Shown here in pieces: positions 8,104-26,236 of a stretch of 27,907 nucleotides of DNA (its first letter is position 1; each line of letters starts with the position of its first letter). Under the pieces are notes generated by a model. It saw only the letters and a list, made by a program, of their open reading frames with translations, did no database searches and was not told the origin of the DNA. This DNA is from Candidatus Yonathbacteria bacterium RIFOXYD1_FULL_52_36. GTDB taxonomy: Bacteria > Patescibacteriota > Minisyncoccia > Phycocordibacterales > UBA1539_B. The DNA lies in NCBI GenBank assembly GCA_001823605.1, contig MHUZ01000021.1:1-27907 (forward strand), given 5' to 3'. Position numbers and translations under genes: made by a program.

Positions 8104-8175
8104 GGCGTGGTGGCGAAGTGGTAACGCTTCGGTCTGCAAAACCGACACGCGCGGGTTCGATTCCCGCCCACGCCT
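8104..8175 (+). tRNA. tRNA-Cys (GCA). No encoded CCA.
   Basis: Acceptor GGCGTGG pairs with CCACGCC. Anticodon stem TCGGT/ACCGA with loop CTGCAAA. T arm GCGGG-TTCGATT-CCCGC. Discriminator T. The following bases are CTA. Confidence 0.88.
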
Positions 8176-8203
8176 CTAGAAAAAGTGCTAGAATACTCAT
8201 CAC

Positions 8204-8286
8204 GCCGGGGTGATGAAATGGTAGACATAGGAGACTTAAAATCTCCAGGGCGCAAGCCCGTGTGGGTTCGAGTCCCACCCTCGGCA
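8204..8286 (+). tRNA. tRNA-Leu (TAA), type II. No encoded CCA.
   Basis: Acceptor GCCGGGG pairs with CCTCGGC. Anticodon stem GGAGA/TCTCC with loop CTTAAAA. Long variable arm GGGCGCAAGCCCGT. T arm GTGGG-TTCGAGT-CCCAC. Discriminator A. Confidence 0.88.
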
Positions 8287-8307
8287 CTAAAGTAAATCTA
8301 AAAAGTT

Positions 8308-9510: not shown

Positions 9511-9540
9511 ATCGAGGAAGAAAATGGATCTAACCAAAAA

Positions 9541-9564
9541 AACACCCGAGAGGGTGTTTTTTTG
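9541..9564. terminator. Bidirectional intrinsic terminator between convergent genes
   Basis: Stem AACACCC / GGGTGTT with GAGA loop. It is flanked by A7 upstream and T7 downstream, so it works on both strands. It sits between the stop of the 8308-9510 gene and the mscL stop at 9570. Confidence 0.75.
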
Positions 9565-9569
9565 GTTTC

Positions 9570-9995
9570 TTAACTAAGCTCTGCCGTACACTGCGGGCAC
9601 CGTGTTGCCTTAATGGGAATTGTTGAGATACAGAATGGGCACTCTTTGGTTGTCGGTTCTCCCTCTTCGGTTTTCTCTGCCTTGCGCCGCAGATTGTTCA
9701 TGCCCTTCACCACCATAAAGATCGCGAACGCAACGATCGCAAAATCTATCACGGCGTTGAGAAACACGCCGTAGTTGAGTGTCACCGCGGCGGTAGCGTT
9801 ACTCGCCTCCTTGAGTGTGATCACCAAGTTTGAAAAATCAACACCACCGGTCAGAACTCCGACAGGAGGCATGATAACGTCACTTACGAGAGATGAAACG
9901 ATCTTGCCGAATGCGGTTCCGATAACAACGCCGATCGCCAGATCAACCACATTGCCGCGCATTGCAAACTCCTTAAATTCTTTGATGACTGACAT
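9570..9995 (-). CDS. mscL: Large-conductance mechanosensitive channel MscL with a C-terminal Cys4 zinc-ribbon tail
   Basis: [33 protein letters not shown] is the canonical MscL N terminus and TM1. TM2 is present. The start was trimmed to ATG 9993-9995, whereas the track ORF extends to 10028. The C terminus is ...[25 protein letters not shown]. Confidence 0.88.
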
Positions 9996-10035
9996 ATGTA
10001 TTGGATTACACGGATAACTCCGCTTCACTCCGTTA

Positions 10036-10111
10036 TGGTCCGCCCGGTAGGAATCGAACCTACGACCGTTTGCTTAAGAGGCAACTGCTCTACCGACTGA
10101 GCTACGGGCGG
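10036..10111 (-). tRNA. tRNA-Lys (CTT) with genomically encoded CCA
   Basis: The reverse complement is CCGCCCG-TA-GCTCAGTCGGTAGAGC-A-GTTGC-CTCTTAA-GCAAA-CGGTC-GTAGG-TTCGATT-CCTAC-CGGGCGG-A-CCA. There is one non-Watson-Crick pair at positions 27:43. Confidence 0.82.
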
Positions 10112-10125
10112 ATATTCAACCCATA

Positions 10126-10386
10126 CTACCAGAGAGCGCCTTCTGCTTCAAGGCGTTTCCGTTTTTGTGCCGATCCCCTATTATACCCACCCACGGAACC
10201 ATCCGCTCGCACTACGCGATGGCACGGGATCGCCGGGTCGTAATTAGTGGTGAGGATATTCCCCACCGCGCGATACGCACGCGGACTTCCCGCGCGACGT
10301 GCCACTTCAGCATAGGTCATCGTCTTGCCTTTGGGAATCGTGCGGACCACGCTGAATACTTTGTCTCGAAATACAATCCTCTCCAT
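10126..10386 (-). CDS. Single-domain MGMT-family protein (methylated-DNA-protein-cysteine methyltransferase DNA-binding / acceptor domain only)
   Basis: The PCHRVV motif is IPCHRVVRADGSVGGY, followed by the helix-turn-helix TYAEVARRAGSPRAYRAVGN. The start was trimmed to ATG 10384-10386 (MERIVFRD...). The protein is 86 aa. Confidence 0.8.
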   Translation of the reverse strand: MERIVFRDKVFSVVRTIPKGKTMTYAEVARRAGSPRAYRAVGNILTTNYDPAIPCHRVVRADGSVGGYNRGSAQKRKRLEAEGALW

Positions 10387-10407
10387 TACACTGACTGTAC
10401 CACAACG

Positions 10408-10436
10408 TTGGTGATTCACTAAAAATGCGCTAGAAT
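10408..10436 (+). promoter_or_regulatory. Sigma70-like promoter for the tRNA-Leu pair
   Basis: TTGGTG, a 17-nt spacer and TAGAAT, located 42 nt upstream of tRNA-Leu(TAG). Confidence 0.45.
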
Positions 10437-10478
10437 CCTAGAACACCAAGAGGGATAGGTGCTGCGGTGAAACGAAGC

Positions 10479-10560
10479 GCCGAGGTGGCGAAATTGGTAT
10501 ACGCACTTGCCTTAGGAGCAAGCGGGGCAACCCATGGAGGTTCAAGTCCTCTCCTCGGCA
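10479..10560 (+). tRNA. tRNA-Leu (TAG), type II. No encoded CCA.
   Basis: Acceptor GCCGAGG pairs with CCTCGGC. Anticodon stem CTTGC/GCAAG with loop CTTAGGA. Long variable arm. T arm GGAGG-TTCAAGT-CCTCT. Discriminator A. Confidence 0.85.
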
Positions 10561-10577
10561 CAAAAAAGGAACCAAGC

Positions 10578-10662
10578 GGGCGTGTGGCGGAATTGGTATA
10601 CGCGTACGTCTCAGAAGCGTATGGAGTAATCCTTGGGAGTTCGAGTCTCCCCACGCCCACCA
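10578..10662 (+). tRNA. tRNA-Leu (CAG), type II, with encoded CCA
   Basis: Acceptor GGGCGTG pairs with CACGCCC. Anticodon stem TACGT/GCGTA with loop CTCAGAA. Variable arm TGGAGTAATCCTT. T arm GGGAG-TTCGAGT-CTCCC. The 3' end is A-CCA. Confidence 0.82.
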
Positions 10663-13095: not shown

Positions 13096-13482
13096 TTAGC
13101 GAGTACGGTTGTTGATCGGGAGATCTGGCGCAGATCCTGTTGTTCCACGTCCACCGACCGTTCGAATCAAAATTCCCACCAATGCCCATACGCTCACCAT
13201 AATAGCGATCGCCACAATGCTGTGGACGATCATACTGCGAGCTTCTTTACGAGCTTCTTCGTCACCTGAATTCAAAACAAACTTTGCCAATCCCCAGAGG
13301 AAATACACCACCGCGAGTGAAACAAAGAGTGAAGCGAGGAGGTTCAAAATAGTACCGACGAACGCAAAGACATCTCCCGCGTCTGCTTGTGTACCAATGG
13401 TAAGTGGTCCCGTCGCAAATACTGCCACAGGAAGCATCGCCACGAGGATCCATGCTGAGATCTTTATTGCTGTAGAACGCAT
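13096..13482 (-). CDS. Small two-TM protein, paralogue B, with an N-terminal signal peptide
   Basis: Signal peptide MRSTAIKISAWILVAMLPVAVFA. Core: VVYFLWGLAKFVLNSGDEEARKEARSMIVHSIVAIAIMVSVWALVGIL. The alternative upstream start at 13527 is encoded by AT-rich, promoter-like sequence. Confidence 0.65.
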   Translation of the reverse strand: MRSTAIKISAWILVAMLPVAVFATGPLTIGTQADAGDVFAFVGTILNLLASLFVSLAVVYFLWGLAKFVLNSGDEEARKEARSMIVHSIVAIAIMVSVWALVGILIRTVGGRGTTGSAPDLPINNRTR

Positions 13483-13590
13483 AACGTAATTAAAAATGCT
13501 TTTATAAATAAAATTGATGATCGACACAACCTATCCTCTAGTATACGGCACACCTGGACAACCCGCAATCATACCTGTGGATAGCACCGT

Positions 13591-13935
13591 TTACGAAAGC
13601 GTGCGTACCACGATCCCCACAAATGCCCAAAAGGCGGCAATGACCGCAAGAGCGACGATTCCCCAAATCATCCGTTCCCTGCCCTCAGTGCGCCCGTCAG
13701 ACTCTGCAGAATTGCGTATATACTGCACGGCACCCCAGAGAAAATAGACAATGGTGGCAGCAAAAAGAATACTCACCAAAGGACCGATGATCTGACCGAC
13801 CACATACTGCACCAATGTCCTAAAGTCAGTAAAGTGCTCTGACACATATACCCCTTCCGCCGAAAGAACGAGCGGAGCAAATAATCCAAATGCCCCAAGG
13901 ACACTGCCGATGTTTCTTTGAACCCTAGTATGCAT
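13591..13935 (-). CDS. Small two-TM protein, paralogue C, with an N-terminal signal peptide
   Basis: Signal peptide MHTRVQRNIGSVLGAFGLFAPLVLSAEG. Core: TIVYFLWGAVQYIRNSAESDGRTEGRERMIWGIVALAVIAAFWAFVGIV. A GAGAGA SD sits 9 nt upstream. Confidence 0.7.
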   Translation of the reverse strand: MHTRVQRNIGSVLGAFGLFAPLVLSAEGVYVSEHFTDFRTLVQYVVGQIIGPLVSILFAATIVYFLWGAVQYIRNSAESDGRTEGRERMIWGIVALAVIAAFWAFVGIVVRTLS

Positions 13936-13951
13936 ATATTTATCTCTCTAT

Positions 13952-14419
13952 CTAGATCCTTTGGATCGTCCCCGCAATCGCCGTTGCCAACGCCCAAGCG
14001 CCGAGTACGATCGCCGCGCCAATAATCGTACCAAAAAATGTTTTCTTGGCATCTTCAAGTTTCTTAGTGTCTCCTCCTGCAGTCACAAAAAGAAATCCGG
14101 AGTAAATAAGCATCACCGCTATGACCGGCATCAAGATCCGCACAATCGCTTCAAGGACTTTGTGTAAAAGCTCCATGAGGCTGTTGTAGGGTGTCGGGTT
14201 CGGAAACCTGATTGTCTCCCCAGATCCTGCCACTGGCTGAACATTGGTAGTTCGAGGTGCCTGCGGCGTGATTGTACCCTGTCCCGCGGGTGGCTGTGGC
14301 GTAATGGTCCCTTGGGCATACACAACACCCCCCGGCACCGCAACAAGAACCATGCTGACCAACAGCGAACATACTGCTATGCCACCTGCGATGTACGTAT
14401 ATAGTGATTTCATGCTCAT
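13952..14419 (-). CDS. VirB2/TrbC-like pilin-like protein, paralogue D, with a signal peptide and a Pro/Thr-rich tandem repeat
   Basis: Signal peptide MSMKSLYTYIAGGIAVCSLLVSMVLVAVPGGVVYAQG. Tandem 11-mer GTITPQPPAGQ / GTITPQAPRTT. Core IAVMLIYSGFLFVTAGGDTKKLEDAKKTFFGTIIGAAIVLGAWALATAIAG. This IYGGF..T.GG...K...AKK...A.IG..IV..A pattern was recalled from memory as a CPR pilin-like family signature. Confidence 0.75.
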   Translation of the reverse strand: MSMKSLYTYIAGGIAVCSLLVSMVLVAVPGGVVYAQGTITPQPPAGQGTITPQAPRTTNVQPVAGSGETIRFPNPTPYNSLMELLHKVLEAIVRILMPVIAVMLIYSGFLFVTAGGDTKKLEDAKKTFFGTIIGAAIVLGAWALATAIAGTIQRI

Positions 14420-14425
14420 AGATTA

Positions 14426-14806
14426 TTACCCGACAGATCTAAACGGTTCTTCGAACAGGACCGTCATGACAAACTTTACGATCACCCACGCACCAAATGC
14501 CACCACTAACCCGATCGCGGCCCACAGAAAAGCATCTTTCGCATTTTGACGTGCCGTGTCGCTCCCCCCATGGATCATCAACTGAAACCCCGCATAGGCA
14601 AACGCAACCGCCGCAAGGGGAAGTGCTAACCCGTACAACAAAAAATCAACGATGTTGCGCGCCAGTTGCATAAGTTGTGTCCAGCCACATCCCGACCCTT
14701 CACATGCCGGCACGATCGCCGTCGGCGCAGTCGCGTACACAAGTACCGGAACAAAGCTTACCACGACCGCGCTTGTGCGTGCTGCATAGTCTTGAAACAT
14801 ACTCAT
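14426..14806 (-). CDS. VirB2/TrbC-like pilin-like protein, paralogue E
   Basis: Signal-like hydrophobic N terminus followed by CEGSGCGW. Core AVAFAYAGFQLMIHGGSDTARQNAKDAFLWAAIGLVVAFGAWVIVKFV. It starts 2 nt after the stop of the upstream SBP gene and ends 6 nt before D. Confidence 0.72.
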   Translation of the reverse strand: MSMFQDYAARTSAVVVSFVPVLVYATAPTAIVPACEGSGCGWTQLMQLARNIVDFLLYGLALPLAAVAFAYAGFQLMIHGGSDTARQNAKDAFLWAAIGLVVAFGAWVIVKFVMTVLFEEPFRSVG

Positions 14807-14808
14807 AG

Positions 14809-16152
14809 TTACGGCATTGATCGTTTAATACTCTCACTCAGTCGTCCATCGAGCACCGTGATCGAATCTTTCGCGTCACGTCGTGCCGAGAGCACATCTT
14901 CAATCGCCGACTGGAACGCACTTTTTGTGCTCGCCGCGTCTGGATCGACAAACCCGCGCGCAATAAGCGCTCCTCGATACACAACCTCTTTGAACGGATC
15001 ACTCTGCTCTACGGAAAGCATGTCTCGGCGGACAGGAGCAATGCCAAGCGCATCAGAAAATGCCTGAGAGAACTCCCTGCTTCCAAAAAGCCCCGCAATA
15101 TATGATCCGCCAGAAGGATTTGCCCCCGCCTTAAGTACGCCTGCCGCATATAACGTGCCGAACGTTGCCGATCTTCCCGGATCCTCAGTCTTCACTTTTG
15201 CTTGTGGTAACGGCGCCATATCAAAATTGAGATGTGGATTCTTCTGGGTGATAACTGCGTACTCGCTCGCGAACCCAAAGTAGGTTGCCAAGTCCCCCTG
15301 TGCAAAAAAATCACGTGAGACGGGAAGCGCCCGACTCCATGAATATTCTCCGCGAGTCGGGTCAGCAAATCGCGTATAGAAACGAAGTGCGGCTATAGCA
15401 GGAGAACTCGCCGACTGTACATCGCGCGCGATCACACTCTTAAGTGTTTGCGCGGCTTCTGCTCCTTCAAACATCGTGATCGCATTTCCGGTCTGCAAGA
15501 TAAGCGTGGCCAGGATCTCTTTTGCGTGGAGCACATTCTCAGACTGCCCCAACGCGATCCCGCTCTGTGCGATCGCCCCCTGTGTGGTTCCACGTTTCGT
15601 GAGTTGCACCATCGGTTCAACGTAAAACTCAGTCCACGATTGAGGCGGGTTTGCGATTCCTTCCGCAGAAAACAGGTCGCGGTTCCAATACATCACCAGC
15701 GGGTCAACCGCGATCGGCATCCCGATCATTCCCTGCGGGTAGACTAGGAGCTCAACCTCTTCAATAAATGTATTCTTGAGGTCGCGCAACGCCATCGAGA
15801 ATGGCACGAGCCGATCACGATGACGATACATTCCATCGTGCGTGAATATGACCGCATCAGGAGCACGATTTGAAGCAAGCGCTTCAGTAAGATCCGCATC
15901 AAGCGTATCGGGATCTTTTTGTACATATGCCATTCGCACTGTCTCGATCCCTGGAAATGCTTCGTTAAAGGCACTGGTAACGACCCGTTCATCAACCGTT
16001 CCCCACACCGTCACTGTGCCGTAGTTCTGCTTCGCTTTGCTCCCCCATGGCGAAGGGATAATGTCGGCGAACATAAGAAAGCCCAACATGCCGAAAAGTG
16101 CGGCTCCCATCATCAACCCTACCTGAAAAATATTCGTGCTTTTTTCTTGCAT
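14809..16152 (-). CDS. Membrane-anchored extracellular solute-binding protein (ABC-type family-1, MalE-like). No transporter partners are in the window.
   Basis: N-terminal TM helix. Family-1 SBP hallmarks are VTVWGTVDE...AFPGIETV...APDAVIF and YPQGMIGMPIAVDPLVMYWNRDLFSAEGIANPPQSWTEF. The protein is 447 aa. Confidence 0.75.
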   Translation of the reverse strand: MQEKSTNIFQVGLMMGAALFGMLGFLMFADIIPSPWGSKAKQNYGTVTVWGTVDERVVTSAFNEAFPGIETVRMAYVQKDPDTLDADLTEALASNRAPDAVIFTHDGMYRHRDRLVPFSMALRDLKNTFIEEVELLVYPQGMIGMPIAVDPLVMYWNRDLFSAEGIANPPQSWTEFYVEPMVQLTKRGTTQGAIAQSGIALGQSENVLHAKEILATLILQTGNAITMFEGAEAAQTLKSVIARDVQSASSPAIAALRFYTRFADPTRGEYSWSRALPVSRDFFAQGDLATYFGFASEYAVITQKNPHLNFDMAPLPQAKVKTEDPGRSATFGTLYAAGVLKAGANPSGGSYIAGLFGSREFSQAFSDALGIAPVRRDMLSVEQSDPFKEVVYRGALIARGFVDPDAASTKSAFQSAIEDVLSARRDAKDSITVLDGRLSESIKRSMP

Positions 16153-16830: not shown

Positions 16831-19299
16831 TTAGAGGCACACCAGCGAGGCAATCGAATCCCCCTCGCGCAATTTCATAATCCGCACGCCCTGCGTCTGT
16901 CGGCCAAGTGCGGGGATGCTCTTAGTTTCTACGCGGATGACTTGGCTCTTCTTTGATATTGAAACAACTTCTTCGTCGAGAGACGTGATCACCTTCGCCG
17001 CCATGAGCGCGCCGGTCTTTGCGGTTACCTTAAACGTCTTGATGCCCGAACCGCCGCGACCCTGAATCTTGTACTCTTTCATCGGGGTCTTCTTGCCGTA
17101 GCCATTCTCGCTCATCACTAAAAGTTCCGGATTCTCCGCGGCAGCCGAAACCACATCCGCGCCGATCAGACTGTCGCCTTTGCCGATCTTGAGAGCGCGC
17201 ACACCGCCCGCCGCACGCCCCATCTCGCGCACATCGGATTCTTTAAATCGAATTGATTGCCCCTTTGCCGTAGCAAGCACCACACTGTCTCCCTTACCAC
17301 AGAGACGCGCCGAAAGCAGTTCATCACCCGGAGCAAGCTTGATTGCCATGAGACCGCTCCTGCGTACATCCGCAAAACCCTGCGCAGAAACTTTCTTCAC
17401 CACACCCTGTTTTGTGACCATCATGAGTGATGCCTGTGCTTGCACACCCTTTACCGCCTTAGGTACTGAAAGGATCGAGGTGACATTCTCATCCGCAGAA
17501 AGCGAGAGGAAGTTCATCACCGACTTGCCGCGCGTTGCACGCTTCCCTTCAGGGATATCGTACATTTTGATCTGATATGCCTTGCCTTTATCGCTAAAGA
17601 AGAGCAGGTCGCTGTGCGTGGACGCAGAAAGGAATATTGTAATAAAATCTTCTTCTTTGGTATTGAGGTCCATCACGCCCACCCCGCCGCGATTTTGTTT
17701 GCGGTACTCGCTCGGGTTTGTGCGCTTCACATATCCTCCGCTCGTGAACACCAAGATCGATTCTTCGTCGGGGATCGTGTCCTCAAGAGAGATCGCCTTA
17801 GCGCCACCCTTCACGATGCGCGTGCGGCGATCGTTGCCATATTTCTCCTTCGCCTCGAGAAGTTCTGTCTTCACCACACCCAAGATCTTTTTCTCGCTTG
17901 CGAGAAGTTCCTTCAACTCTTTGATGAGCTTGCGCTTCTCTTCGAGTTCGGTCTCCACCTGCTTACGCTCAAGACCGGCAAGTTTCTGGAGGCGCATTTC
18001 CAAGATAGCCGTCGCTTGGCGATCGGAGAACTTGAACTCTTTCATCAAATTGAGGTGCGCAGTCGGCGTGTCTTTTGACGCCTTGATCACCTTAATGATC
18101 TGGTCAATATGATCGAGGGCTTTCTTCAACCCTTCCAAAATGTGTGCGCGCTCCTCTGCGCGCGTAAGGTCATACTGCGTACGGCGACGCACGACGATCT
18201 GGCGGTGCGCCAAAAATTCTACAAGGATCTGCTTGAGCGAGAGCGTCTGAGGAACACCATCCACCAATGCGAGCATGTTGTAGTGGAACATCGTCTCAAG
18301 CGTGGTGTGCTTGTAGAGGTAGTTCAGCACGTTCTGCGGATGGGCACCTGATTTAAGGTCGATCACTACACGGATCTCTTTTGTTGATTCATCGCGAAGT
18401 CCTTTGATGCCCTCGATCTTCTTCTCGCGCACCAGCTCAGCGATCTGCATGATGAGGTCGGACTTGTTTACGCGGAATGGGATCGAGGTGATGAGGATCT
18501 GACTGCCGTTCTTGCCATCCACGATATCCACCTCGCCGCGCGTCACCACACCACCGCGTCCGGATGAATATGCGTGATGAATGTCTTTCTCGTTAAACAC
18601 CAAACCGCCGGTCGGAAAATCGGGACCCTTCACGAACTTCAACAGATCTTCGTTCGTGGCATCTTTGTCGTCAGCTAGATAAGAACAGGCATCGACAAGC
18701 TCGCCCAAGTTGTGGGGAGGAATGTTCGTTGCCATACCGACGGCGATACCCAGCGTTCCGTTCAAAAGAAGGTTGGGCACCCCTGCCGGAAGCACGATCG
18801 GTTCCTTGCGGGTGTTGTCGTAGTTGCCACGGAAGTCAACTGTTTCTTTATCAAGATCACGGAGCAGTTCGCTGGCGATGCGGGACATCTTTGCCTCGGT
18901 GTAACGCATGGCTGCCGGAGGGTCGCCGTCGATCGAACCGAAGTTACCCTGACCGAAGACGAGCGGGTAGCGTGTCACGAAATCTTGACCGAGCTTCACC
19001 ATTGCGTCGTACACAGACGAGTCGCCGTGCGGGTGGTATTTTCCGAGCACGTCTCCAACTACTGCCGCCGACTTGCGGAATTTTGCGGTGTGCGCGAGTC
19101 CCATCTCCCCCATCGCGAAAAGAATGCGGCGGTGCACCGGCTTGAGCCCATCGCGCACGTCAGGCAACGCACGACTCGCAATGACGGACATTGCGTAGTC
19201 GAGATACGATTCTTTCATCTCCGCGCTGATCTCAACAGAGATGACGCCCTCGTGAGGCGCCTTTGGTTCTTCGTGCTGTTCCTGCTCCCGTTTCTTCAT
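16831..19299 (-). CDS. gyrA: DNA gyrase subunit A
   Basis: Motifs [17 protein letters not shown] and the [23 protein letters not shown] (Ser/Asp are the wild-type positions). C-terminal beta-pinwheel repeats are present. The protein is 822 aa. The SD AAGAGGAA sits 6 nt upstream. Confidence 0.95.
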
Positions 19300-19336
19300 A
19301 ATGTTCCTCTTAGTATATCACACAACGCCGCTTCAG

Positions 19337-19705
19337 TTAAGGGGCTGGTGGTGGTAAAACGTCTTCTTCTGCCGACACTTCCGGTACCAATTCCTCGGTT
19401 GTTGTGGCGGAAGATCCCTCGATCAGAGCTTCTTCTTGGACAACCACCGGAGCATAGTTCTCTGGGGCTTCTGTCTTCTTTTCAAATGGTGCGCCGGTTC
19501 CGCTCATGCTTGCACGAAGGACCCCGCCAAGCGCCTCAAATGGTGAGGGGGCGTTTTGCGCCGTATCTTCACTCTCTTTACCGGCGACCTGCATGAGCAT
19601 TACCCATAGAAAAATAACGAGGCCGAACAAGATTATCGTCAACGCGAGCGCGATCTGTTTGCGCTCATGTTCCGGTTTCTTTTGGAGACGCTCAATGAGA
19701 TCCAT
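19337..19705 (-). CDS. Small membrane protein with an acidic, Pro-rich extracytoplasmic tail
   Basis: A single TM helix IALALTIILFGLVIFLWVMLM follows a basic N terminus. The tail is low complexity and ends in PPPAP. It lies 18 nt downstream of the MBL gene and 37 nt upstream of gyrA. Confidence 0.5.
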   Translation of the reverse strand: MDLIERLQKKPEHERKQIALALTIILFGLVIFLWVMLMQVAGKESEDTAQNAPSPFEALGGVLRASMSGTGAPFEKKTEAPENYAPVVVQEEALIEGSSATTTEELVPEVSAEEDVLPPPAP

Positions 19706-20854: not shown

Positions 20855-20905
20855 CCCTAGGCCTGAACGAATCCAGCATCGACCCCGATGACTGGAAACC
20901 CAACA

Positions 20906-20938
20906 ACGCCCCGACACACGTCGGGGCGTCTTACTTTG
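20906..20938 (+). terminator. Intrinsic terminator T1 (copy 1 of a repeated hairpin)
   Basis: ACGCCCCGAC-ACAC-GTCGGGGCGT followed by CTTACTTTG. Confidence 0.7.
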
Positions 20939-20950
20939 TCCGCCGAGCAC

Positions 20951-20979
20951 TTGACATATCCTACATATCTGCTATACTA
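20951..20979 (+). promoter_or_regulatory. Near-consensus sigma70 promoter
   Basis: TTGACA, a 17-nt spacer (TATCCTACATATCTGC) and TATACT. A 33-codon ORF with a GGAG SD follows 39 nt downstream. Confidence 0.6.
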
Positions 20980-21017: not shown

Positions 21018-21119
21018 ATGAAGACGCCCAGCACCTTCTTGAGTAGCCATATGATCAACATCACGGCCGACACCGGCGGCAGCGGTCATCCCGCCATTGG
21101 TCTGAACTACATCGCCTGA
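21018..21119 (+). CDS. Candidate small peptide of 33 aa (MKTPSTFLSSHMINITADTGGSGHPAIGLNYIA)
   Basis: A near-consensus promoter is upstream. A GGAG SD sits 9 nt upstream of the ATG. Terminator T2 lies about 85 nt downstream. Confidence 0.3.
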   Translation: MKTPSTFLSSHMINITADTGGSGHPAIGLNYIA

Positions 21120-21202
21120 ACCACGGCCGGCGCCGACGGGAACACATAAGTGTTCGCCCGCTTCGCCAGTGACATCCTTACCGGATGTCACGCAGCACCC
21201 GA

Positions 21203-21235
21203 CCACCCCCTGCCACTAAGGGGGTGGTTTTTTCT
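21203..21235 (+). terminator. Intrinsic terminator T2
   Basis: CCACCCCC-TGCCACTAA-GGGGGTGG followed by TTTTTTCTT. Confidence 0.75.
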
Positions 21236-21475
21236 TGCGCAAAAAGTTTTCCACAGACACGTGCCATTACCATCACTCCAAGCAAGCGCATGTGATATGC
21301 TTAAAGAGGAGTAGTTTGCGCTAGTCCTTTGGCTAGAGTCCGCGACAAAGGAGCTTTCCCATGAAAAGCCCTCCGCTGTTTAGCACTGCCTCACCCGCGT
21401 GCACCTTCCCGCACTAGGGCGACTGCCATGGCCCTTACAAAGAACCCTGGCTGCTTTTGCCAGCATCTACAACCA

Positions 21476-21506
21476 ACGCCCCGACATACGTCGGGGCGTT
21501 TTCTTG
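21476..21506 (+). terminator. Intrinsic terminator T3 (copy 2 of the repeated hairpin)
   Basis: ACGCCCCGAC-ATAC-GTCGGGGCGT followed by TTTCTTG. It matches T1 apart from one loop base, and both have CAACGCC immediately upstream. It is preceded by an 18-codon ORF (21361-21417) with a perfect AAAGGAG SD. Confidence 0.7.
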
Positions 21507-21680
21507 CCCGAAGACCCCCACCATGCTATAGTTTCCCCACCAAGCCGGCATGTTCGACTCGGTATTAATTGATAACCTTTAAGGGTAACCCCATTAAAGT
21601 GATTGCGCCGTTTAGATGCGCATGAACTTATGGAACCTTAAGGCGGAATGCCCCCGCCCTAGGCGGGCTTTTTTATTTTC
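21503..21680 (+). promoter_or_regulatory. rpsA leader: candidate promoter, two CCTT(T)AAGG palindromic boxes, and a terminator-like hairpin with a U-tract ending 1 nt before the start codon
   Basis: CTTGCC, an 18-nt spacer and TATAGT at 21503-21531. ACCTTTAAGG is at 21575-21584 and ACCTTAAGG at 21624-21632. The hairpin is CCCGC-CCTAG-GCGGG (21653-21667), followed by CTTTTTTATTTTC and then ATG 21681. Confidence 0.45.
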
Positions 21681-22796
21681 ATGACCAAACAAGAAACCAC
21701 AGAAGAAGTTGTCGTCGAAACGCTCATGCACGAGCTTTTGAAGCGCGTCCCCACTCCTCCCAAGCTTGGTGACCTCATTGAAGGCCCGGTCATATCAATC
21801 GACAAAGCGGCAGTCTACATTAACCTGAAGCCCTTCGGAACCGGCATCATTTTCGGCCGCGAGTACCTTCAGGCGCGCGATGTTTTGAAAAAGATCGCCA
21901 TCGGCGATACGATCAGCGCCCAGGTTGTGGACGCACACAACGAAGACGGCTACGTTGAGCTCTCGCTCCACGAGGCACGCCAGGCACTCATCTGGACCGA
22001 GGCAGAAGATGCGATCAAAAAGAAACTTGTCGTCGAGCTCCCGATCAAGGACGCCAACAAGGGTGGACTTATCCTCGAGTGGCAGGGCATCGCAGGATTC
22101 CTCCCGGCTTCACAACTCAAGCCCGAGCACTACCCGCGCGTTGAGGACGGCAGTAAGGATCGTATTTTGGAAGAGCTGAAGAAACTCATCGGCGAAAAAC
22201 TTACCGTCACCATCATCGGTGCTGACCAGAAAGAAGGAAAGCTTATTTTTTCCGAGAAAGATTCAGGACAGAAAGAGAAGCGCGAGATGGTTGAGAAGTA
22301 CGCCGTAGGCGACGAGCGCGACGGCACCGTGACCGGCATCGTTGACTTTGGCGTCTTCGTCAAGATCGAAGAAGGACTCGAGGGACTCGTCCACATCTCC
22401 GAGATGGACTGGGCACTCGTCGAGAATCCGCGCACACTCTACAAAGTAGGCGACAAAGTTCGCGTAAAGGTCATTGATGTAAAGGACGGCAAAGTGTCGC
22501 TCTCGATCAAGGCTCTCAAGGACAATCCGTGGACCGAAGCAAGCAAGAAATGGAAGAAGGGTGATGCAGTGACCGGCGTGGTAATCAAATTCAACCAGTA
22601 CGGCGCACTCGTTTCGATCGAGGAAGGCGTTGCAGGATTGGTTCATTTCTCCGAATTCGGAACGATGGACAAACTCCGCGCAGCACTCGAACTCGGCAAG
22701 ACCTACAGCTTCAAGATCACGCTCTTCGAGCCCAAGGATCAGAAGATGACACTCTCGTTTTCTCAGGCAAACACCGAAGGAGAAGAGGCGAAGTAG
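21681..22796 (+). CDS. rpsA: 30S ribosomal protein S1, four-S1-domain form
   Basis: Repeated S1 OB-fold motifs: G.V.G.V......FGVFV......GLVHISE. The protein is 371 aa. Confidence 0.9.
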   Translation: MTKQETTEEVVVETLMHELLKRVPTPPKLGDLIEGPVISIDKAAVYINLKPFGTGIIFGREYLQARDVLKKIAIGDTISAQVVDAHNEDGYVELSLHEARQALIWTEAEDAIKKKLVVELPIKDANKGGLILEWQGIAGFLPASQLKPEHYPRVEDGSKDRILEELKKLIGEKLTVTIIGADQKEGKLIFSEKDSGQKEKREMVEKYAVGDERDGTVTGIVDFGVFVKIEEGLEGLVHISEMDWALVENPRTLYKVGDKVRVKVIDVKDGKVSLSIKALKDNPWTEASKKWKKGDAVTGVVIKFNQYGALVSIEEGVAGLVHFSEFGTMDKLRAALELGKTYSFKITLFEPKDQKMTLSFSQANTEGEEAK

Positions 22797-22810
22797 GACC
22801 TATCGACAAA

Positions 22811-22947
22811 GACACACAAAAAAACCCGCGCGCCGGGCCACAATATTTTTCTGCTGAAAAATTTGCAGCCCCCACCTCGCGCCACCGCGCTCCGGTTCTG
22901 AACGCTCCGCGCACTCGCGTTCAGCGGCGCGCGGGTTTTTGTGTGTC
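22811..22947. repeat. Long composite palindrome and bidirectional terminator between the convergent rpsA and GH genes
   Basis: Outer arms are GACACACAAAAAAACCCGCGCGCCG (22811-22835) and CGGCGCGCGGGTTTTTGTGTGTC (22925-22947). Inner hairpins are CTGAACGC...GCGTTCAG (22898-22924) and ATTTTTC-TGCT-GAAAAAT (22845-22862). Confidence 0.7.
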
Positions 22948-22955
22948 TGCCCCTA

Positions 22956-24734
22956 TCAATTTGCACGGATCTTTACCGATGCCGTACGGAGCGTCACGCC
23001 ACTCAGATCCTTTGCCACGAACGTGACCGTGTACTCCCCGCTTGAACGCCACTTCCAATTCCTCACGCTCACCAGAGCCTCTTTGTTCAATGAGTCCGCA
23101 CTATCGCGCATAGCGTTAAGCGTTCCACCATCCACTTTCCAATACATTGTGTACTGCGGAAGCGTGTACCCGCCAAGCGACGCCTTAAATGTTTGCGTGT
23201 CTGAAAGCGTCGCCCCGTTCGTCGGCGCAACGATCGTAATAGTGCCCGGAGTCGCCGCAGGACCGACCGAAAGCGTTGCCACATTATTCCTCCACGTATA
23301 GAGCCTCGACCAATTACTGGCAAACGCACCCATTTTCAGTGTGTACGAACCATTACTTGCGGGTGTCCAGTCAAGTGAATACTGTTTTGTTTCCCCCGCT
23401 GCAAAATTCTGCCCCGAGAAATATCGCTGAAACACCTTGCGCCCCTGACCGTCGTAGATCTCGTAATCAATGATCGCATTCGAGACCGCAGTATCGCTCT
23501 GTGCGGATACGCCAAGCGTTGCCCTTTGTCCTGCCGTAAGTGTTCCCGCGGCAACGAGCGCTGCCGAAAATGTCGCGGTCTGTGGTTCTGGCGGGGGCGG
23601 TGGCGGCGTTTCGCCATTGATCGTGCCAAACCACTGGCGCATCACCTCTTCAGCAGGTTTGTTCTGCGGTGTGTAATCTTTGTTCCCTGTTCCGCCAGCA
23701 TCGGGGTAACTTATCCAATTCCACAAGTACACTCCCCGCATATACGAGGAGGTTCCCCAGTAACTCAAAAGCGCCTCGTAGAGCCGCGCCTGAAGCTCAG
23801 CATTGTACGGCGCATCGGTCCACGATTCATAGGGTTTCATGTTGGCCCCGTTGACACTACGGTATCCCACTTCGCTGAAGATGATTGGTTTGTTGTATTG
23901 GTTATAAAATGGCTGCAAGTGAGTATCATTGAGTTGGTCCCACGCTGACACAAATGAAGCGACCGAGTTCTGTGAATCACCCGGAAGACTGAAGTATGCC
24001 GAGATGCTTATGAAATCCACCGATGGCCAAAACCCGACATATGCCTTTTCATTGCTGATCCAATCATTGGGATCAGGATACGAGGAATTCGCCTCGTAGG
24101 TAACGTTGCCGGAATATACCCCGCGCACACGATTGATAAGCGCGACCCAGCGATCGGTCTGTCCATTGTTTTTGTTCGCGAGCGTTACCATTTCGGTACC
24201 GATCGAAAAGTTCTCCGCACCGTTTGTCTGTGCAAGGGTTGCAATGCGCACCAAAAGGTCCCCATAGGTTTGGAACCACGCCGCTTTATCATTTGGATTG
24301 ATCCTTCCGCGCCAATCATGGGTAAGCGGTTCCGCGTGCACCTTCACGGTTACTTGCAGTCCGATCGAGCGCGCATACCGGATCGCTTCCGCAAGTGATG
24401 CGTCAGTCGGCGTACCGGTGCCAGTACGATAAATATCACTTGAGGTGATCGATGTCTGATAGTACGTTGCAACGAGCCCTACATGGGTTGCGCCCGTTGC
24501 TTTGAGATCGCGCAATGACGCCTTGAATGATTCACTCGCATAATCAGTCGAGGAGCGCGCTACGATGCTCGCCCCTTTGTGCCACCCCGTCACCGCCGCA
24601 TCGGCTTTGGGTGTCGGCGCAATCACTGGTGCGAACGACATCCCCACCACTGAAAACAACATAAGAAAAGAGATTGCACGATGACCAATGCCTCTTGCAT
24701 AAAAATTCATCACATATTTTTTTGTCTTTGTCAT
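22956..24734 (-). CDS. Secreted glycoside hydrolase (clan GH-A-like TIM barrel) with a poly-Pro linker and two C-terminal beta-sandwich domains
   Basis: Signal peptide MTKTKKYVMNFYARGIGHRAISFLMLFSVVGMSFAPVIA. Candidate catalytic glutamates lie in FSIGTEMV and IIFSEVGY (acid/base and nucleophile of retaining TIM-barrel hydrolases). PPPPPPEP linker. Two Ig/CBM-like domains follow. The start was chosen at ATG 24732-24734. Alternatives are 24788 (track) and 24710. Confidence 0.7.
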   Translation of the reverse strand: MTKTKKYVMNFYARGIGHRAISFLMLFSVVGMSFAPVIAPTPKADAAVTGWHKGASIVARSSTDYASESFKASLRDLKATGATHVGLVATYYQTSITSSDIYRTGTGTPTDASLAEAIRYARSIGLQVTVKVHAEPLTHDWRGRINPNDKAAWFQTYGDLLVRIATLAQTNGAENFSIGTEMVTLANKNNGQTDRWVALINRVRGVYSGNVTYEANSSYPDPNDWISNEKAYVGFWPSVDFISISAYFSLPGDSQNSVASFVSAWDQLNDTHLQPFYNQYNKPIIFSEVGYRSVNGANMKPYESWTDAPYNAELQARLYEALLSYWGTSSYMRGVYLWNWISYPDAGGTGNKDYTPQNKPAEEVMRQWFGTINGETPPPPPPEPQTATFSAALVAAGTLTAGQRATLGVSAQSDTAVSNAIIDYEIYDGQGRKVFQRYFSGQNFAAGETKQYSLDWTPASNGSYTLKMGAFASNWSRLYTWRNNVATLSVGPAATPGTITIVAPTNGATLSDTQTFKASLGGYTLPQYTMYWKVDGGTLNAMRDSADSLNKEALVSVRNWKWRSSGEYTVTFVAKDLSGVTLRTASVKIRAN

Positions 24735-24807
24735 GGTGAAATTAATTAAAAGTGAGTAGTGCACGATGAGCATACCTATAGTAAACACCTTGTCTCATTA
24801 ACCTCGC

Positions 24808-24853
24808 GTGAACAAAAACCAGCGCGCCGTACGGCGCGCTGGTTTTTGTTCAC
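24808..24853. repeat. Perfect 46-nt palindrome and bidirectional terminator between pth and the GH gene
   Basis: GTGAACAAAAACCAGCGCGCCG-TA-CGGCGCGCTGGTTTTTGTTCAC. It shares the core CAAAAACC(C/A)GCGCGCCG with the 22811-22947 element. Confidence 0.75.
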
Positions 24854-24872: not shown

Positions 24873-25463
24873 TTAATTCACCTCCCCCATCGCCCGCTCA
24901 CGTCCTTCGGTCACCACGAGTTCAAGCGCCTCGCTTGCCTTTTTGAGCACCTTTTTGAGTACGTCCGTTTCCTTTGGAGAAAACTTCCCGAGGATGAATT
25001 TGATCACCGCATCCTCGCCCGAAGGTTTGCGCAGTTTACCCGAGGGTGTCGCCGGTGAGACACCCACGCGTACGCGCACGAACGCGCGCGTTTTCAGATG
25101 TTTGATGATCGATTCAAGTCCGCGGTGCCCGCCAGACCCGCGATCAAACGAGATCTTCATGGTGCCGAGCGGCAGATCAAGATCATCGTAGATCACCACG
25201 AGTTTCTCCGCCTGCTTCGCGTTTTTCACGAGCGGTGCGATCGCCTTACCCGAGTTATTCATAAAGGTTTCGGGCATCACCGCAACGACCGACTCCTTCC
25301 CTACCTTACCCTTCGCCACGAGCGCTTTCGTGTACTTGTCGTCCTTCCAGTCGGAGAGCTCTTGTTTCTTTGCAAACTTCTCGACGACCATCCGCCCCAC
25401 GTTGTGTCGTGTGCCTTCGTATTCGTCTCCCGGATTGCCGAGCCCTGCGATGATGTATCCCAT
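24873..25463 (-). CDS. pth: Peptidyl-tRNA hydrolase
   Basis: The N terminus MGYIIAGLGNPGDEYEGTRHNVG is the canonical Pth start, with the catalytic His in HN(V/I)G. The start was trimmed from the track ORF (25526) to ATG 25461-25463. Confidence 0.9.
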   Translation of the reverse strand: MGYIIAGLGNPGDEYEGTRHNVGRMVVEKFAKKQELSDWKDDKYTKALVAKGKVGKESVVAVMPETFMNNSGKAIAPLVKNAKQAEKLVVIYDDLDLPLGTMKISFDRGSGGHRGLESIIKHLKTRAFVRVRVGVSPATPSGKLRKPSGEDAVIKFILGKFSPKETDVLKKVLKKASEALELVVTEGRERAMGEVN

Positions 25464-25606
25464 AATGATATCCAAGTATAGCGATACCGCAAAAAAATTA
25501 CCACCCTCGCGCGCAAATGCTCGCATTTGTGCTGCTCCTCACTTGGCGTTATAAAGAATACTGTAGATCGTCATCATTCGGACGGGGTACACACATGAGT
25601 ACATGT

Positions 25607-25635
25607 TTGTACCCGCCCTCATTTGGCGCTATACT
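25607..25635 (+). promoter_or_regulatory. Promoter of lepB, with a leaderless transcript
   Basis: TTGTAC, a 17-nt spacer and TATACT. ATG 25643 begins 7 nt after the -10, so there is no room for a 5' UTR or SD. Confidence 0.55.
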
Positions 25636-25642
25636 CCACACC

Positions 25643-26236
25643 ATGGAACCATCATCACCACAAACCACTCCCTCTAAAGCGCCGGAGCCTCAAAAACAAA
25701 CGCTTCGCCACAGTATTTTCGAGTTCGTAAAATTCGTGATCATCGCCGTGATCATCGTGGTTCCCGTGCGCATGTATATCGCTCAGCCGTTCATCGTAAA
25801 TGGCGAATCAATGGATCCGACGTTCGCCACTGGACAATACCTCATTATTGACGAGATCTCGTATCGCTTCTCGCCCCCCGAGCGTGGTGACATTGTCGTC
25901 CTCCACGATCCGCGTGGCAACAGCAAAAAGTACCTGATCAAACGCGTGGTCGGCCTTCCCGGAGAAACACTCGAGATCGCGGACGGTACGATATGCATCA
26001 GCACAGGAGAAGCTCCGTGTACGACGCTCGAGGAGCCGTACGTGCTCTACCCCAAGACCGACGAGGTACTCCGCGTTACTCTCGGGCAGGAAGAATTTTT
26101 TATGATGGGTGACAATCGCGCCGCAAGTCTCGACTCGCGTTTCTTCGGTCCCGTAAAACGCGATCTCATTGTCGGCCGCGCATTCGTACGTCTTTTGCCG
26201 CCAACCACCGCCTCATTCTTCCCTGGAAAAGAGTAA
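25643..26236 (+). CDS. lepB: Signal peptidase I
   Basis: TM anchor, Ser box GESMDPTF, Lys box KRVVGLPGETL and GDNRAASLDSRFFG. The start was trimmed to MEPSSPQ. The track ORF starts at 25517 inside pth. Confidence 0.88.
   Translation: MEPSSPQTTPSKAPEPQKQTLRHSIFEFVKFVIIAVIIVVPVRMYIAQPFIVNGESMDPTFATGQYLIIDEISYRFSPPERGDIVVLHDPRGNSKKYLIKRVVGLPGETLEIADGTICISTGEAPCTTLEEPYVLYPKTDEVLRVTLGQEEFFMMGDNRAASLDSRFFGPVKRDLIVGRAFVRLLPPTTASFFPGKE

Follow-up and report, generated by a model that had tools for sequence, protein, structure and literature searches.

The DNA analyzed here (the window) is a 27,907-nt stretch from a member of Candidatus Yonathbacteria (Paceibacteria, CPR), a tiny groundwater bacterium. 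Between its convergent genes rpsA and pth lies a gene for a GH113-family glycoside hydrolase, flanked by a palindrome downstream (copy D) and another upstream (copy U). The features of the locus are as follows.

21681–22796, plus strand: rpsA, encoding ribosomal protein S1 (371 aa; Pfam S1, E 5.7e-41), the left flank of a conserved junction
22811–22835, unstranded: left arm of the downstream palindrome, copy D, GACACACAAAAAAACCCGCGCGCCG
22835–22895, plus strand: R1 core, a two-hairpin element (covariance-model match of 58.3 bits, E 6e-14)
22845–22851 / 22856–22862, plus strand: first R1 hairpin (hp1), loop TGCT
22879–22882 / 22887–22890, plus strand: second R1 hairpin (hp2), loop CACC
22898–22924, plus strand: third inner hairpin, CTGAACGC-11 nt-GCGTTCAG, which completes the 89-nt interior of copy D
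22925–22947, unstranded: right arm of copy D, CGGCGCGCGGGTTTTTGTGTGTC, holding the U-tract for rpsA
22956–24734, minus strand: GH113-family glycoside hydrolase gene (592 aa; Pfam GH113, E 5.4e-50), the cargo
24735–24807, minus strand: 5' region of the GH113 gene, with a block TCACGCGAGGTTAATGAG...TTTACT that is kept in relatives L211 and L212
24808–24853, unstranded: upstream palindrome, copy U, GTGAACAAAAACCAGCGCGCCG TA CGGCGCGCTGGTTTTTGTTCAC, 46 nt and perfect
24873–25526, minus strand: pth, encoding peptidyl-tRNA hydrolase (Pfam Pept_tRNA_hydro, E 9e-57), the right flank of the junction

The translated GH113 gene begins with a hydrophobic, signal-like segment and ends in a Wzt_C-like beta-sandwich domain (Pfam Wzt_C, 1.4e-6), and the protein is 100% identical to one from Candidatus Yonathbacteria RIFOXYC1_FULL_52_10. 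No anomaly was seen in the GC content of the gene, and no consensus sigma-70 promoter was called in its 5' region (24735–24807). GH113 and pth are co-directional, both on the minus strand, while rpsA and GH113 form a convergent pair. Because the identical locus sequence was recovered in six to nine assemblies made independently (ENA, NCBI, JGI, and Logan), an assembly artifact is ruled out.

Copy U consists of two 23-nt arms that are 100% complementary, with zero spacer and no bulges, and the 46-mer folds at −40.8 to −42 kcal/mol (z of −8 to −10 vs. shuffled sequence). It lies 19 nt past the pth stop codon, and there is no plus-strand gene for it to terminate. Copy D, a 137-nt composite (22811–22947) located 15 nt after the rpsA stop codon and 9 nt after that of GH113, has arms that pair over 22 nt (95% complementary, with runs of A7 vs. 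T5 leaving a 2-A bulge) and enclose an 89-nt interior (22836–22924); the composite folds at −74.5 / −85.5 kcal/mol (z of −8.6 vs. shuffled sequence). The right arm can alternatively pair locally with 22885–22894 (CCGCGCUCCG), and in folding this local hairpin forms on the plus strand only. The interior is a separate thing from the terminator arms, placed exactly at the hairpin tip. The original prediction placed both palindromes correctly (46 nt at 24808–24853 and 137 nt at 22811–22947), with two amendments: the “137-nt composite palindrome” has real arms but combines two things, terminator arms and an unrelated 89-nt insert of the R1 family, and the 46-mer does lie beside pth but, since pth and GH113 are co-directional, it would be the pth terminator ahead of GH113.

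Bidirectional intrinsic (Rho-independent) terminators serve convergent gene pairs and have a GC stem between an A-tract and a T-tract. Copies U and D both present a GC hairpin followed by a U-run on each strand: in copy U the stem CCAGCGCGCCG/CGGCGCGCTGG is followed by TTTTTGTT on either strand, and in copy D the arms are followed by T5 or T7. Both are located at gene 3' ends, directly after stop codons, although only copy D lies between convergent genes. They further resemble such terminators in their GC-rich stems, their A-tract and T-tract sides, and their single occurrence in relatives, but differ in being present twice around an inserted gene and in having stems of 21–23 bp including the A/T tracts, far above typical length. 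The loop of copy U falls within the 3–8 nt range of terminators, whereas that of copy D carries an 89-nt, three-hairpin insert, and this multi-hairpin loop makes copy D atypical as a terminator. Judging by these sequence features, both copies probably act as terminators and insulators.

Exactly four occurrences of the core AAAAACCNGCGCGCCG were found in the window, one in each of the four arms, and with up to three mismatches allowed there were eight matches vs. 1.48 expected, a number reached in 0 of 100 shuffles. The arms of the locus palindromes read ACAAAAACCNGCGCGCCG, and the palindrome can be written as the pattern ACAAAAACC(C)GCGCGCC. Copies U and D have 16 nt in common in their left arms and 18 nt in their right arms. 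Among perfect palindromes with stems of ≥12 from 80 related loci, which supplied the null pairs, sharing of ≥16 nt with ≤1 mismatch was found in one of 15,196 inter-species pairs, for an empirical p of ∼1e-4 per pair. When gap ends were compared across 34 cargo-bearing rpsA–pth loci, the window alone was significant, and none of 1122 null pairs reached 17. The upstream arm of L212 is also identical to the downstream arm of the window across 19 nt. The likeness of the arms exceeds generic terminator resemblance and chance. Relative to copy D, copy U has a C-to-A change in the core that is mirrored (G to T) in its other arm, such that palindromy stays perfect.

The A-tract part of the arms (ACAAAAAC) is generic for terminators in the source genome and the clade. 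Within ∼40 kb of the source genome inspected, no further copies of the GC core were found, and the approximately 10 other palindromic terminators there all have unrelated stems. Searches with blastn of the 137-mer, 89-mer, and 46-mer against all loci returned no homologues at blastn sensitivity, and a metagenome scan for ACAAAAACCNGCGCGCCG listed at least 120 single, non-palindromic matches, mostly in high-GC DNA, which are random matches. A role of the core as a DNA-uptake sequence was rejected, given only four half-sites in ∼40 kb.

The gene order gyrA-lactB-rpsA> <pth lepB> hisS> is conserved in 80 related loci. No GH113 gene lies between convergent rpsA and pth in any of the 67 related species carrying both genes on one locus, ∼29 of which have just a short rpsA–pth gap, typically with one long A-tract/T-tract palindrome inside. 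GH113 is also missing from three closer relatives (L222, L223, and L224). In L223 and L224 (rpsA 93% identical at the amino acid level), the gap is 74 nt and contains exactly one palindrome, ACACAAAAACCGCGCGCC-ATAC-GGCGCGCGGTTTTTGTGT (−41.9 kcal/mol), with the same arms as in the window. The GH113 bearers are the window, L212 (GH113 87% identical), and L211 (GH113 69%, rpsA 94%, and pth 90%). Palindromes of shared sequence stand on both sides of GH113 in the window and in L212, whereas in L211 the shared palindrome is clear only downstream, as a simple hairpin; the upstream hairpin of L211 is much diverged (ACAAGCGTGACTC...GAGCGCGCTTGT) but retains ACAA..GCGCGC at the same position ahead of a conserved TCAC..TTAATGAG block. 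The junction terminator of L222 (rpsA 82%) has the same A-tract and a different stem, ACAAAAACACCCCGCC, and this clade specificity of the stem indicates that the duplication used the resident terminator, not an imported one. GH113 homologues elsewhere (∼41% identity) lie among polysaccharide genes, in clusters that lack such palindromes, and we accordingly rejected the palindrome as a co-traveller of GH113.

Between L223 and L224, identity is 100% across >1,480 nt of rpsA as far as the palindrome and ∼93% past its right edge, and the identity matrices of rpsA and pth conflict over which relatives are closest. In the rpsA tree the GH113-less L223 and L224 group with the GH113-bearing L211, which points to loss in L223/L224, or to recombination. 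In principle, a Logan contig might skip from one palindrome to an identical one, but this is unlikely here because two different samples share the GH113-less junction and contigs usually break at palindromes. Mirrored, palindromy-preserving changes were also seen in a second palindrome (window 21475–21500 vs. L211), which together with a near-identical one at 20905–20930 brackets another small module in the window.

The reading that we favor, with a probability of roughly 0.62, is that copies U and D are paralogous to the resident rpsA/pth bidirectional terminator and enclose a GH113 gene whose gain or loss proceeds by recombination. The single bidirectional intrinsic terminator of GH113-less relatives would correspond to two paralogous copies in GH113 bearers, with a ∼2-kb segment carrying the secreted glycoside hydrolase between them, yielding three insulated transcription units. 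Copy D would terminate rpsA transcripts (plus strand) and GH113 transcripts (minus strand), while copy U would end pth and may tune read-through into GH113. Gain could have proceeded by integration of a fragment or circle bearing a terminator copy at the resident terminator, and loss by recombination between the two copies, deleting GH113 and leaving one copy behind. Arm changes mirrored in the partner arm would have kept both copies as perfect hairpins. The insertion (or retention) of 89 nt at the tip of copy D, the first 61 of them R1, would be a separate event. Recombination as the mechanism, in either direction (gain or loss), is an inference.

Several elements of the original prediction carry over into this reading. 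The arms are truly related, with 16–18 nt shared and the core found four times in the window and not again in ∼40 kb of the source genome; the GH113 module has a copy of one inverted repeat at either end, as indicated by the single palindrome at the empty L223/L224 site; and the comparison of relatives shows that rpsA-GH-pth synteny is not universal (GH113 in 0/67 species and 0/3 closer relatives). The proposed mobile or recombined cassette holds up as a bounded, lineage-specific insert, but one for which neither a transposase or integrase nor a target duplication or attC-type core was found. The idea of the repeat as a mobile-element end was abandoned: it is instead the resident junction terminator, with an A-tract part that is generic in the clade.

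The junction has the character of a hot spot, with conserved flanks, unrelated cargo per lineage, and no mobility genes. Depending on the species, the other cargo comprises a sigma factor, ankyrin, EamA, TANGO2, Mur-ligase-like, or hypothetical proteins, and no mobility genes or recombinases were found among it. In Neisseria, minimal mobile elements (MMEs) similarly hold variable cargo between conserved genes that is swapped by transformation and homologous recombination. The rpsA–pth gap resembles MMEs in its unrelated cargo per species, lack of mobility genes, and disagreeing flank identity patterns, but differs in that the terminator is duplicated at the flanks, and for the GH113 cargo only; host competence is assumed in this comparison. 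To our knowledge, flanking terminator duplication is not a described MME feature.

It is unlikely, although worth weighing, that the palindromes belong to a dispersed repeat family (REP/REPIN- or MITE-like) doubling as terminators, whose abundance or mobilisation would explain the GH113 flanks. Long perfect palindromes are very common (176 with stems of ≥12 in ∼1.1 Mb), the second near-identical pair in the window (20905–20930 and 21475–21500) also surrounds a small module, and our view of the source genome covers ∼40 kb, so a family elsewhere is possible. Against this, the GC core has no further copy in those ∼40 kb, where some 10 other terminators have unrelated stems; the same sequence is single-copy at the orthologous junction of GH113-less relatives, indicating local descent; and no target-site duplication was seen, nor any RAYT or transposase in the gene tables. 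With respect to a MITE or composite transposon, no direct repeat was visible outside the palindromes or the GH113 module, and the flanks differ in all three relatives.

We consider it quite improbable that two originally unrelated terminators were later homogenised by short-tract gene conversion or palindrome-templated repair, in which case, at the same low odds, their likeness would be uninformative on the arrival of GH113. Since the upstream hairpin of L211 is quite unlike its downstream one, while those of the window and L212 are nearly identical, the U–D likeness could be due to later gene conversion and not to the original duplication, and the mirrored changes imply that some templated or compensatory process works on these palindromes. 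However, the ACAA..GCGCGC still present at the same position in the L211 upstream hairpin fits divergence from a common copy, and it would be unusual for tracts of 20 nt to undergo conversion at a distance of 1.9 kb.

A dedicated site-specific cassette system using the palindromes as sites (integron attC-like or Xer/dif-module-like) is very unlikely despite the cassette-like geometry, that is, a single ORF followed by an imperfect 3' palindrome in the 57–141-nt class of attC sites and one copy in the empty locus. Integrase, attI, R/L core sites, and a cassette array are all lacking at the locus, which instead has two sites only, resembling ordinary terminators with A/T tracts. No integrase or recombinase was found among Pfam-annotated genes within about ±20 kb (∼40 kb of gene tables), no RYYYAAC/GTTRRRY core was visible by eye in the window, including GTTRRRY at the outer arm ends, and copy U is perfect, without extrahelical bases. 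No related flanking sites or recombinases accompany the cargo in 33 other species at the hot spot, and the fact that this cargo is not bracketed by related palindromes argues against a general cassette system. Finally, two independent ordinary terminators made alike by chance or convergence on an A-tract and GC stem are barely credible: the ACAAAAAC(C) prefix is indeed generic in the clade, but p is ∼1e-4 per pair, the matched test gave 0/1122, and relatives carry that stem in their lone terminator at the orthologous site.

In CPR bacteria, whose genomes are very small and densely packed with genes, few mobile elements can be recognised. The routes by which accessory genes, e.g., for secreted glycoside hydrolases, reach these genomes are poorly understood, and the locus offers a clean comparison of filled and empty sites. 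If GH113 was gained or lost around a duplicated resident terminator, as we favor, the sole footprint of that event is the duplicated hairpin, which suggests terminator palindromes as recombination boundaries.

The insert at the tip of copy D has a distribution of its own. Where the window holds 89 nt, the same arms enclose a loop of 2–4 nt in L211 and L223. A hairpin-plus-loop search revealed a family, R1, that blastn had missed. Its covariance model matches 18 sites, spread over 16 of 81 Paceibacteria loci, at 44–68 bits; the best score in 648 kb of unrelated DNA was 15.8 bits, and a second covariance model scored the copy in the window at 55.2 bits. The third inner hairpin lies outside the family core and is missing in other members. 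Covariation is strong: 98.9% of cells are paired, double changes occur in nine of 11 pairs, one-sided (G-U) changes in none of the 11, and there is no G-U among 179 cells. R1 is usually found inside the tips of long perfect palindromes of unrelated sequence, and these outer stems comprise 321 Watson–Crick pairs, five G-U, and four mismatches. Its phylogenetic distribution is patchy, copies also occurring downstream of gyrA, rpsA, and pth, and no promoter or U-tract was seen consistently among them. R1 turns over fast, while its core is conserved across Paceibacteria.

At gathering thresholds, Rfam returned only tRNAs from the window and 10 R1-bearing loci, and at E ≤ 10 the region 22700–23050 gave three chance matches only (E 0.45–0.69). 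As far as Rfam covers them, SRP RNA, 6S RNA, and known riboswitches or ribozymes were therefore rejected as identities of the interior, and R1, a conserved and strongly covarying element with no G-U pairs, is new to Rfam. A pth leader was rejected, as R1 lies upstream of the pth promoter and is also found after other genes; in relatives, pth is apparently leaderless, with a −10 box 6–7 nt ahead of the ATG. A peptide gene was likewise rejected because R1 has no start codon, its indels are not multiples of three, and its stems covary. A scan of viral contigs gave two chance matches, inside coding sequence. Rather than a classical RNA gene, R1 probably resembles a small structured element that is mobile or acts at the DNA level.

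Insertions that target palindromes include IS1397 and ISKpn1 in REP loops, IS110-family elements in REP, class C group II introns after terminators, and IS200/IS605-derived hairpin elements. R1 is similar in being located at the exact tip of a palindrome that is uninterrupted in relatives, and in that tip insertions recur. It differs in being ∼60 nt long and non-coding, without terminal inverted repeats of its own or target duplication, and in having a class-wide core with a different enclosing stem at every site. We know of no cognate transposase for R1. A flanking motif, CGCTCG ... CGCTYTAAGTT, was rejected as a target duplication, being restricted to a few related genomes and partly the gyrA 3' end. 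Orthologues of other R1 sites (L064/L051, L052/L060, L049/L067, and L048/L045) had different palindromic inserts or were off contig, and no clean empty site was found among these four pairs. Inversion of the 89-nt interior between the arms had no support, with one orientation in all independent assemblies.

That R1 is lodged at the tips of perfect palindromes that evolve fast suggests a process at the DNA level, one with the potential to shape intergenic regions class-wide. A more speculative and rather doubtful reading is that perfect palindromes in Paceibacteria are preferred sites of breakage and recombination on two scales: whole genes would enter or leave between the two copies of a duplicated junction terminator without an integrase, and R1 would be a new DNA-level tip element, mobile or structural. 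R1 may then insert into or seed hairpin tips, with genome-specific signatures and an ssDNA or cruciform form, possibly serviced by an HUH-type or structure-specific enzyme.

In quasipalindrome template-switch mutagenesis, a mutational process known from E. coli and yeast, imperfect inverted repeats are made perfect by copying of one arm from the other (PMC7202029). By analogy, template switching would explain the mirrored changes, the scarcity of mismatches and G-U pairs, and the right arm of L080, which is an inverted copy of the ancestral left flank, and may be involved in building the 20–43-bp perfect palindromes of CPR genomes. Nested tip insertions also recur, with nested palindromes in L042 and 64 nt within the hp2 loop in L222.

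The window originates from Candidatus Yonathbacteria (Paceibacteria/Parcubacteria, CPR) in Rifle groundwater, and identical DNA was found in at least nine independent contigs. The GH113 protein begins with a hydrophobic stretch and carries a GH113 catalytic domain (E 5e-50) and, at its C-terminus, a Wzt_C-like domain; it shares 100% identity with a protein of RIFOXYC1_FULL_52_10, and the GC content of its gene is nothing unusual. The features of the locus are:

21681-22796, plus strand, rpsA
22811-22947, composite palindrome downstream of GH113 (copy D)
22956-24734, minus strand, GH113
24808-24853, perfect 46-nt palindrome upstream of GH113 (copy U)
24873-25526, minus strand, pth
after pth, plus strand, lepB followed by hisS

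Because pth and GH113 are co-directional, copy U is the predicted pth terminator ahead of GH113, and the convergent rpsA and GH113 genes are separated only by copy D, whose arms of 25 nt (22811-22835) and 23 nt (22925-22947) enclose 89 nt that fold as three small hairpins. The A-tract part of the arms is generic, with other terminators in ∼40 kb of the source genome reading AAAAACACCGCC..., ACAAAAACTAAAATG... and AACCAAAAAAACACCC..., and those of relatives ACAAAAAAACC..., but the GC stem is not. In the window, a 16-nt core, AAAAACCNGCGCGCCG, is confined to the four arms, and the window palindromes share 16–18 nt, whereas only one of 15,196 pairs of perfect palindromes (each pair drawn from different related species) shared ≥16 nt at ≤1 mismatch. 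When the two ends of the rpsA-pth gap were compared in 34 cargo-bearing loci, the window alone stood out (0 of 1122 null pairs). The original prediction that GH113 is flanked by palindromes with related arms was borne out. Mirrored changes, CCC to CCA with GGG to TGG in copy U and GCCCCGAC to GCTCCGAC plus its mirror in another palindrome, fit either selection to keep the arms paired or correction of one arm templated by the other, described as quasipalindrome template switching (PMC7202029).

Close relatives carry the site in both filled and empty states. The 1.9-kb contig L212 encodes a GH113 87% identical to that of the window, and starts (...GGCGCGCGGGTTTTTGTGTTCAC) and ends (...GCAAAAACCCGCGCGCC) inside both palindromes. 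L211 (GH113 69%, rpsA 94%, pth 90%) shares the pth-GH113-rpsA order, with a simple hairpin, CAAAAAAACCGCGTGCCG-TT-GGCGCGCGGGTTTTTTG, downstream of GH113 and a diverged one upstream. In L223 and L224, short-read assemblies from two different samples (rpsA 93% at the amino acid level), GH113 is absent, and the 74-nt rpsA-pth spacing holds a single palindrome, ACACAAAAACCGCGCGCC-ATAC-GGCGCGCGGTTTTTGTGT. Two further relatives also lack GH113: at the junction of L222 (82%) the terminator has another stem, ACAAAAACACCCCGCC, and L221 (86%) has different cargo and no palindrome. One copy in the empty site, two in the filled site (clear in the window and L212) and a stem sequence limited to this small clade indicate that both GH113-flanking palindromes are probably paralogues of the resident junction terminator, as judged from sequence. 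The proposed cassette bounded by inverted-repeat copies therefore largely stands, except that the repeat would be the host's own junction terminator, duplicated.

We scanned one genome per species (80 loci, rpsA 64–73% identical), among which the order gyrA-lactB-rpsA> <pth lepB> hisS> was conserved. GH113 lay between rpsA and pth in none of the 67 loci with both genes. Measured between their aligned parts, gaps ranged from 12 to 3,823 bp; taken between true stop codons, the shortest were 2 and 5 nt. Around 29 loci had no ORF in the gap, most of these with one long A/T-tract palindrome; the remaining gaps held unrelated cargo (sigma factor, ankyrin, EamA, TANGO2, Mur-ligase-like, TSP3, and hypothetical proteins), which marks the junction as a hot spot for accessory genes. 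No recombinases were found among this cargo, and the two-end comparison of 34 cargo-bearing loci revealed no related palindromes bracketing other cargo.

Since other cargo is unbracketed and neither the locus nor the gene tables revealed an integrase, transposase, attC core or target duplication, we favor recombination at the resident terminator over a dedicated mobile system; it would proceed by Campbell-type integration or by deletion between copies. The mobile-module mechanism initially suggested was not upheld. A recombination breakpoint can be placed at the hairpin in L223 and L224, which are 100% identical over >1,480 nt across rpsA as far as the junction palindrome (L223 1-1555) and ∼93% identical from its right edge on (1556 onward). 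By rpsA DNA, L223 and L211 are 89.4% identical and either is 83.8–85.5% identical to the window, while pth gives another order of relatedness. We infer that either recombination between copies removed GH113 precisely in the lineage of L223, or the flanks have recombined. Later gene conversion between the two copies is possible, in line with the divergent upstream hairpin of L211. In contig L004, divergence from the window is mosaic (18600-19700, 25400-25800), with a gyrA protein ∼73% identical and lactB-rpsA-GH113 identical, indicating frequent recombination among co-occurring strains.

The 89-nt interior of copy D is unrelated to its arms and contains a conserved, previously uncatalogued element; in L211 and L223 the same arms enclose a loop of 2–4 nt, so the 89 nt represent an indel placed precisely at the tip. 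Hairpins with a TGCT loop were searched for first, and this and two subsequent covariance models identified 22835-22895 as a member of a two-hairpin family, R1, with the layout (ACGCAU)-[7-10-bp A/U-rich hairpin]-UUGCUC..CCUC-[GCGC-CGUC-GCGC hairpin]-UGC and a first loop of UGCU, UACU, UGAA or UGGU. Eighteen members occur in 16 of 81 loci (44–68 bits) and L222 holds a 19th; the best match in 648 kb of unrelated control DNA scored 15.8 bits, and R1 had no Rfam match. Pairing is preserved in 98.9% of cells, with changes on both sides in 9 of 11 pairs and none on one side, hence no G-U pairs.

Around two-thirds of R1 members lie within long, essentially perfect palindromes (16–43 bp; in total 321 Watson-Crick pairs, 5 G-U, and 4 mismatches), whose stem sequences are unrelated from one site to the next, even when both copies belong to a single genome (L064) or when sister species are compared at the same site (L073 vs. 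L080). Members are scattered on the rpsA tree, the nearest relatives often lacking R1, and both L064 copies carry a lineage-specific signature (UGAA loop, CCGGCG extension). The conserved core, variable perfect stems, absence of wobble pairs and fast turnover are better explained by a structured element that is mobile or acts at the DNA level than by a classical RNA gene.

The R1 copy of the window lies in rpsA sense. In plus-strand folds, the right arm of copy D can pair with the nearby CCGCGCUCCG in the 3′ part of R1, potentially forming a terminator hairpin of conventional type ahead of the U-run. Nine copies lie in pth sense upstream of a pth promoter that appears leaderless, with a TATAAT-like box 6–7 nt before the ATG (L019, L020, L049, L051, L054, L064, L073, L078, and L080); the opposite strand of the same pth-lepB intergenic regions has a conserved lepB promoter (TTGTCA ... 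TACAAT), placing R1 between divergent promoters. Others follow gyrA, rpsA or pth, or lie elsewhere. Nested tip insertions recur, in the second-hairpin loop of L222 and in L042 (∼14645-14844, minus strand), where an R1 palindrome (stem GGGGTGATGACGAAAAGAG) is nested in the loop of another palindrome, GCAGTACGGAGTTTTTCAAAC, and TCGCT(C/T)TAA(A/G)TT follows each of them. The rpsA-pth gaps of two species, L052 and L060, share another interior module, GAAAAGCATTGGTGACCTTTTG(T/A)CGCTCGCTTTTC, within long palindromic stems of different sequence, and R1 is probably not the sole tip element in Paceibacteria.

Long perfect A/T-tract palindromes are characteristic of the source genome. Its contig L215, left of the window, has a perfect 54-mer with 26-bp arms (13750-13803) and a perfect 32-mer without loop (17857-17888), both apparent terminators. 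In the window, a near-identical pair (20905-20930 and 21475-21500; AACGCCCCGACA[C/T]ACGTCGGGGCGT[T]), each copy followed by a promoter, repeats the GH113 geometry of two terminator copies around a module, here 545 nt without a long ORF:

20951-20978, strong promoter, TTGACA-16-TATACT
21018-21119, 33-aa ORF
21201-21229, predicted terminator
21362-21418, 18-aa ORF with AAGGAG ribosome-binding site

A strain-level replacement falls in this small-ORF module upstream of rpsA, where L009 653-814 (162 nt) takes the place of window 21025-21108 (84 nt). Contigs of independent assemblies break inside palindromes: L007 ends at window 22863, L008 and L010 end at 24847-24848, L003 and L010 start at 21482, and both ends of L212 lie inside palindromes. 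CPR assemblies appear to be broken up by perfect palindromes that exceed the k-mer in length, so that loci of this kind may go unseen in MAGs.

Elsewhere in the window are five tRNA genes (8104-10662), a partial tRNA (1-81), and a cluster of five T4SS_pilin/TrbC-like small genes (13096-14806; Pfam labels from the contig gene table) adjoining a solute-binding protein gene. Directly 5′ of the rpsA start codon (region 21640-21680), in a ∼150-nt leader with a promoter ahead at 21504-21532, lies a hairpin with a U-run (CCCGCCCTAGGCGGGCTTTTTT, 21653-21674) that could be an attenuator or S1 autoregulation site.
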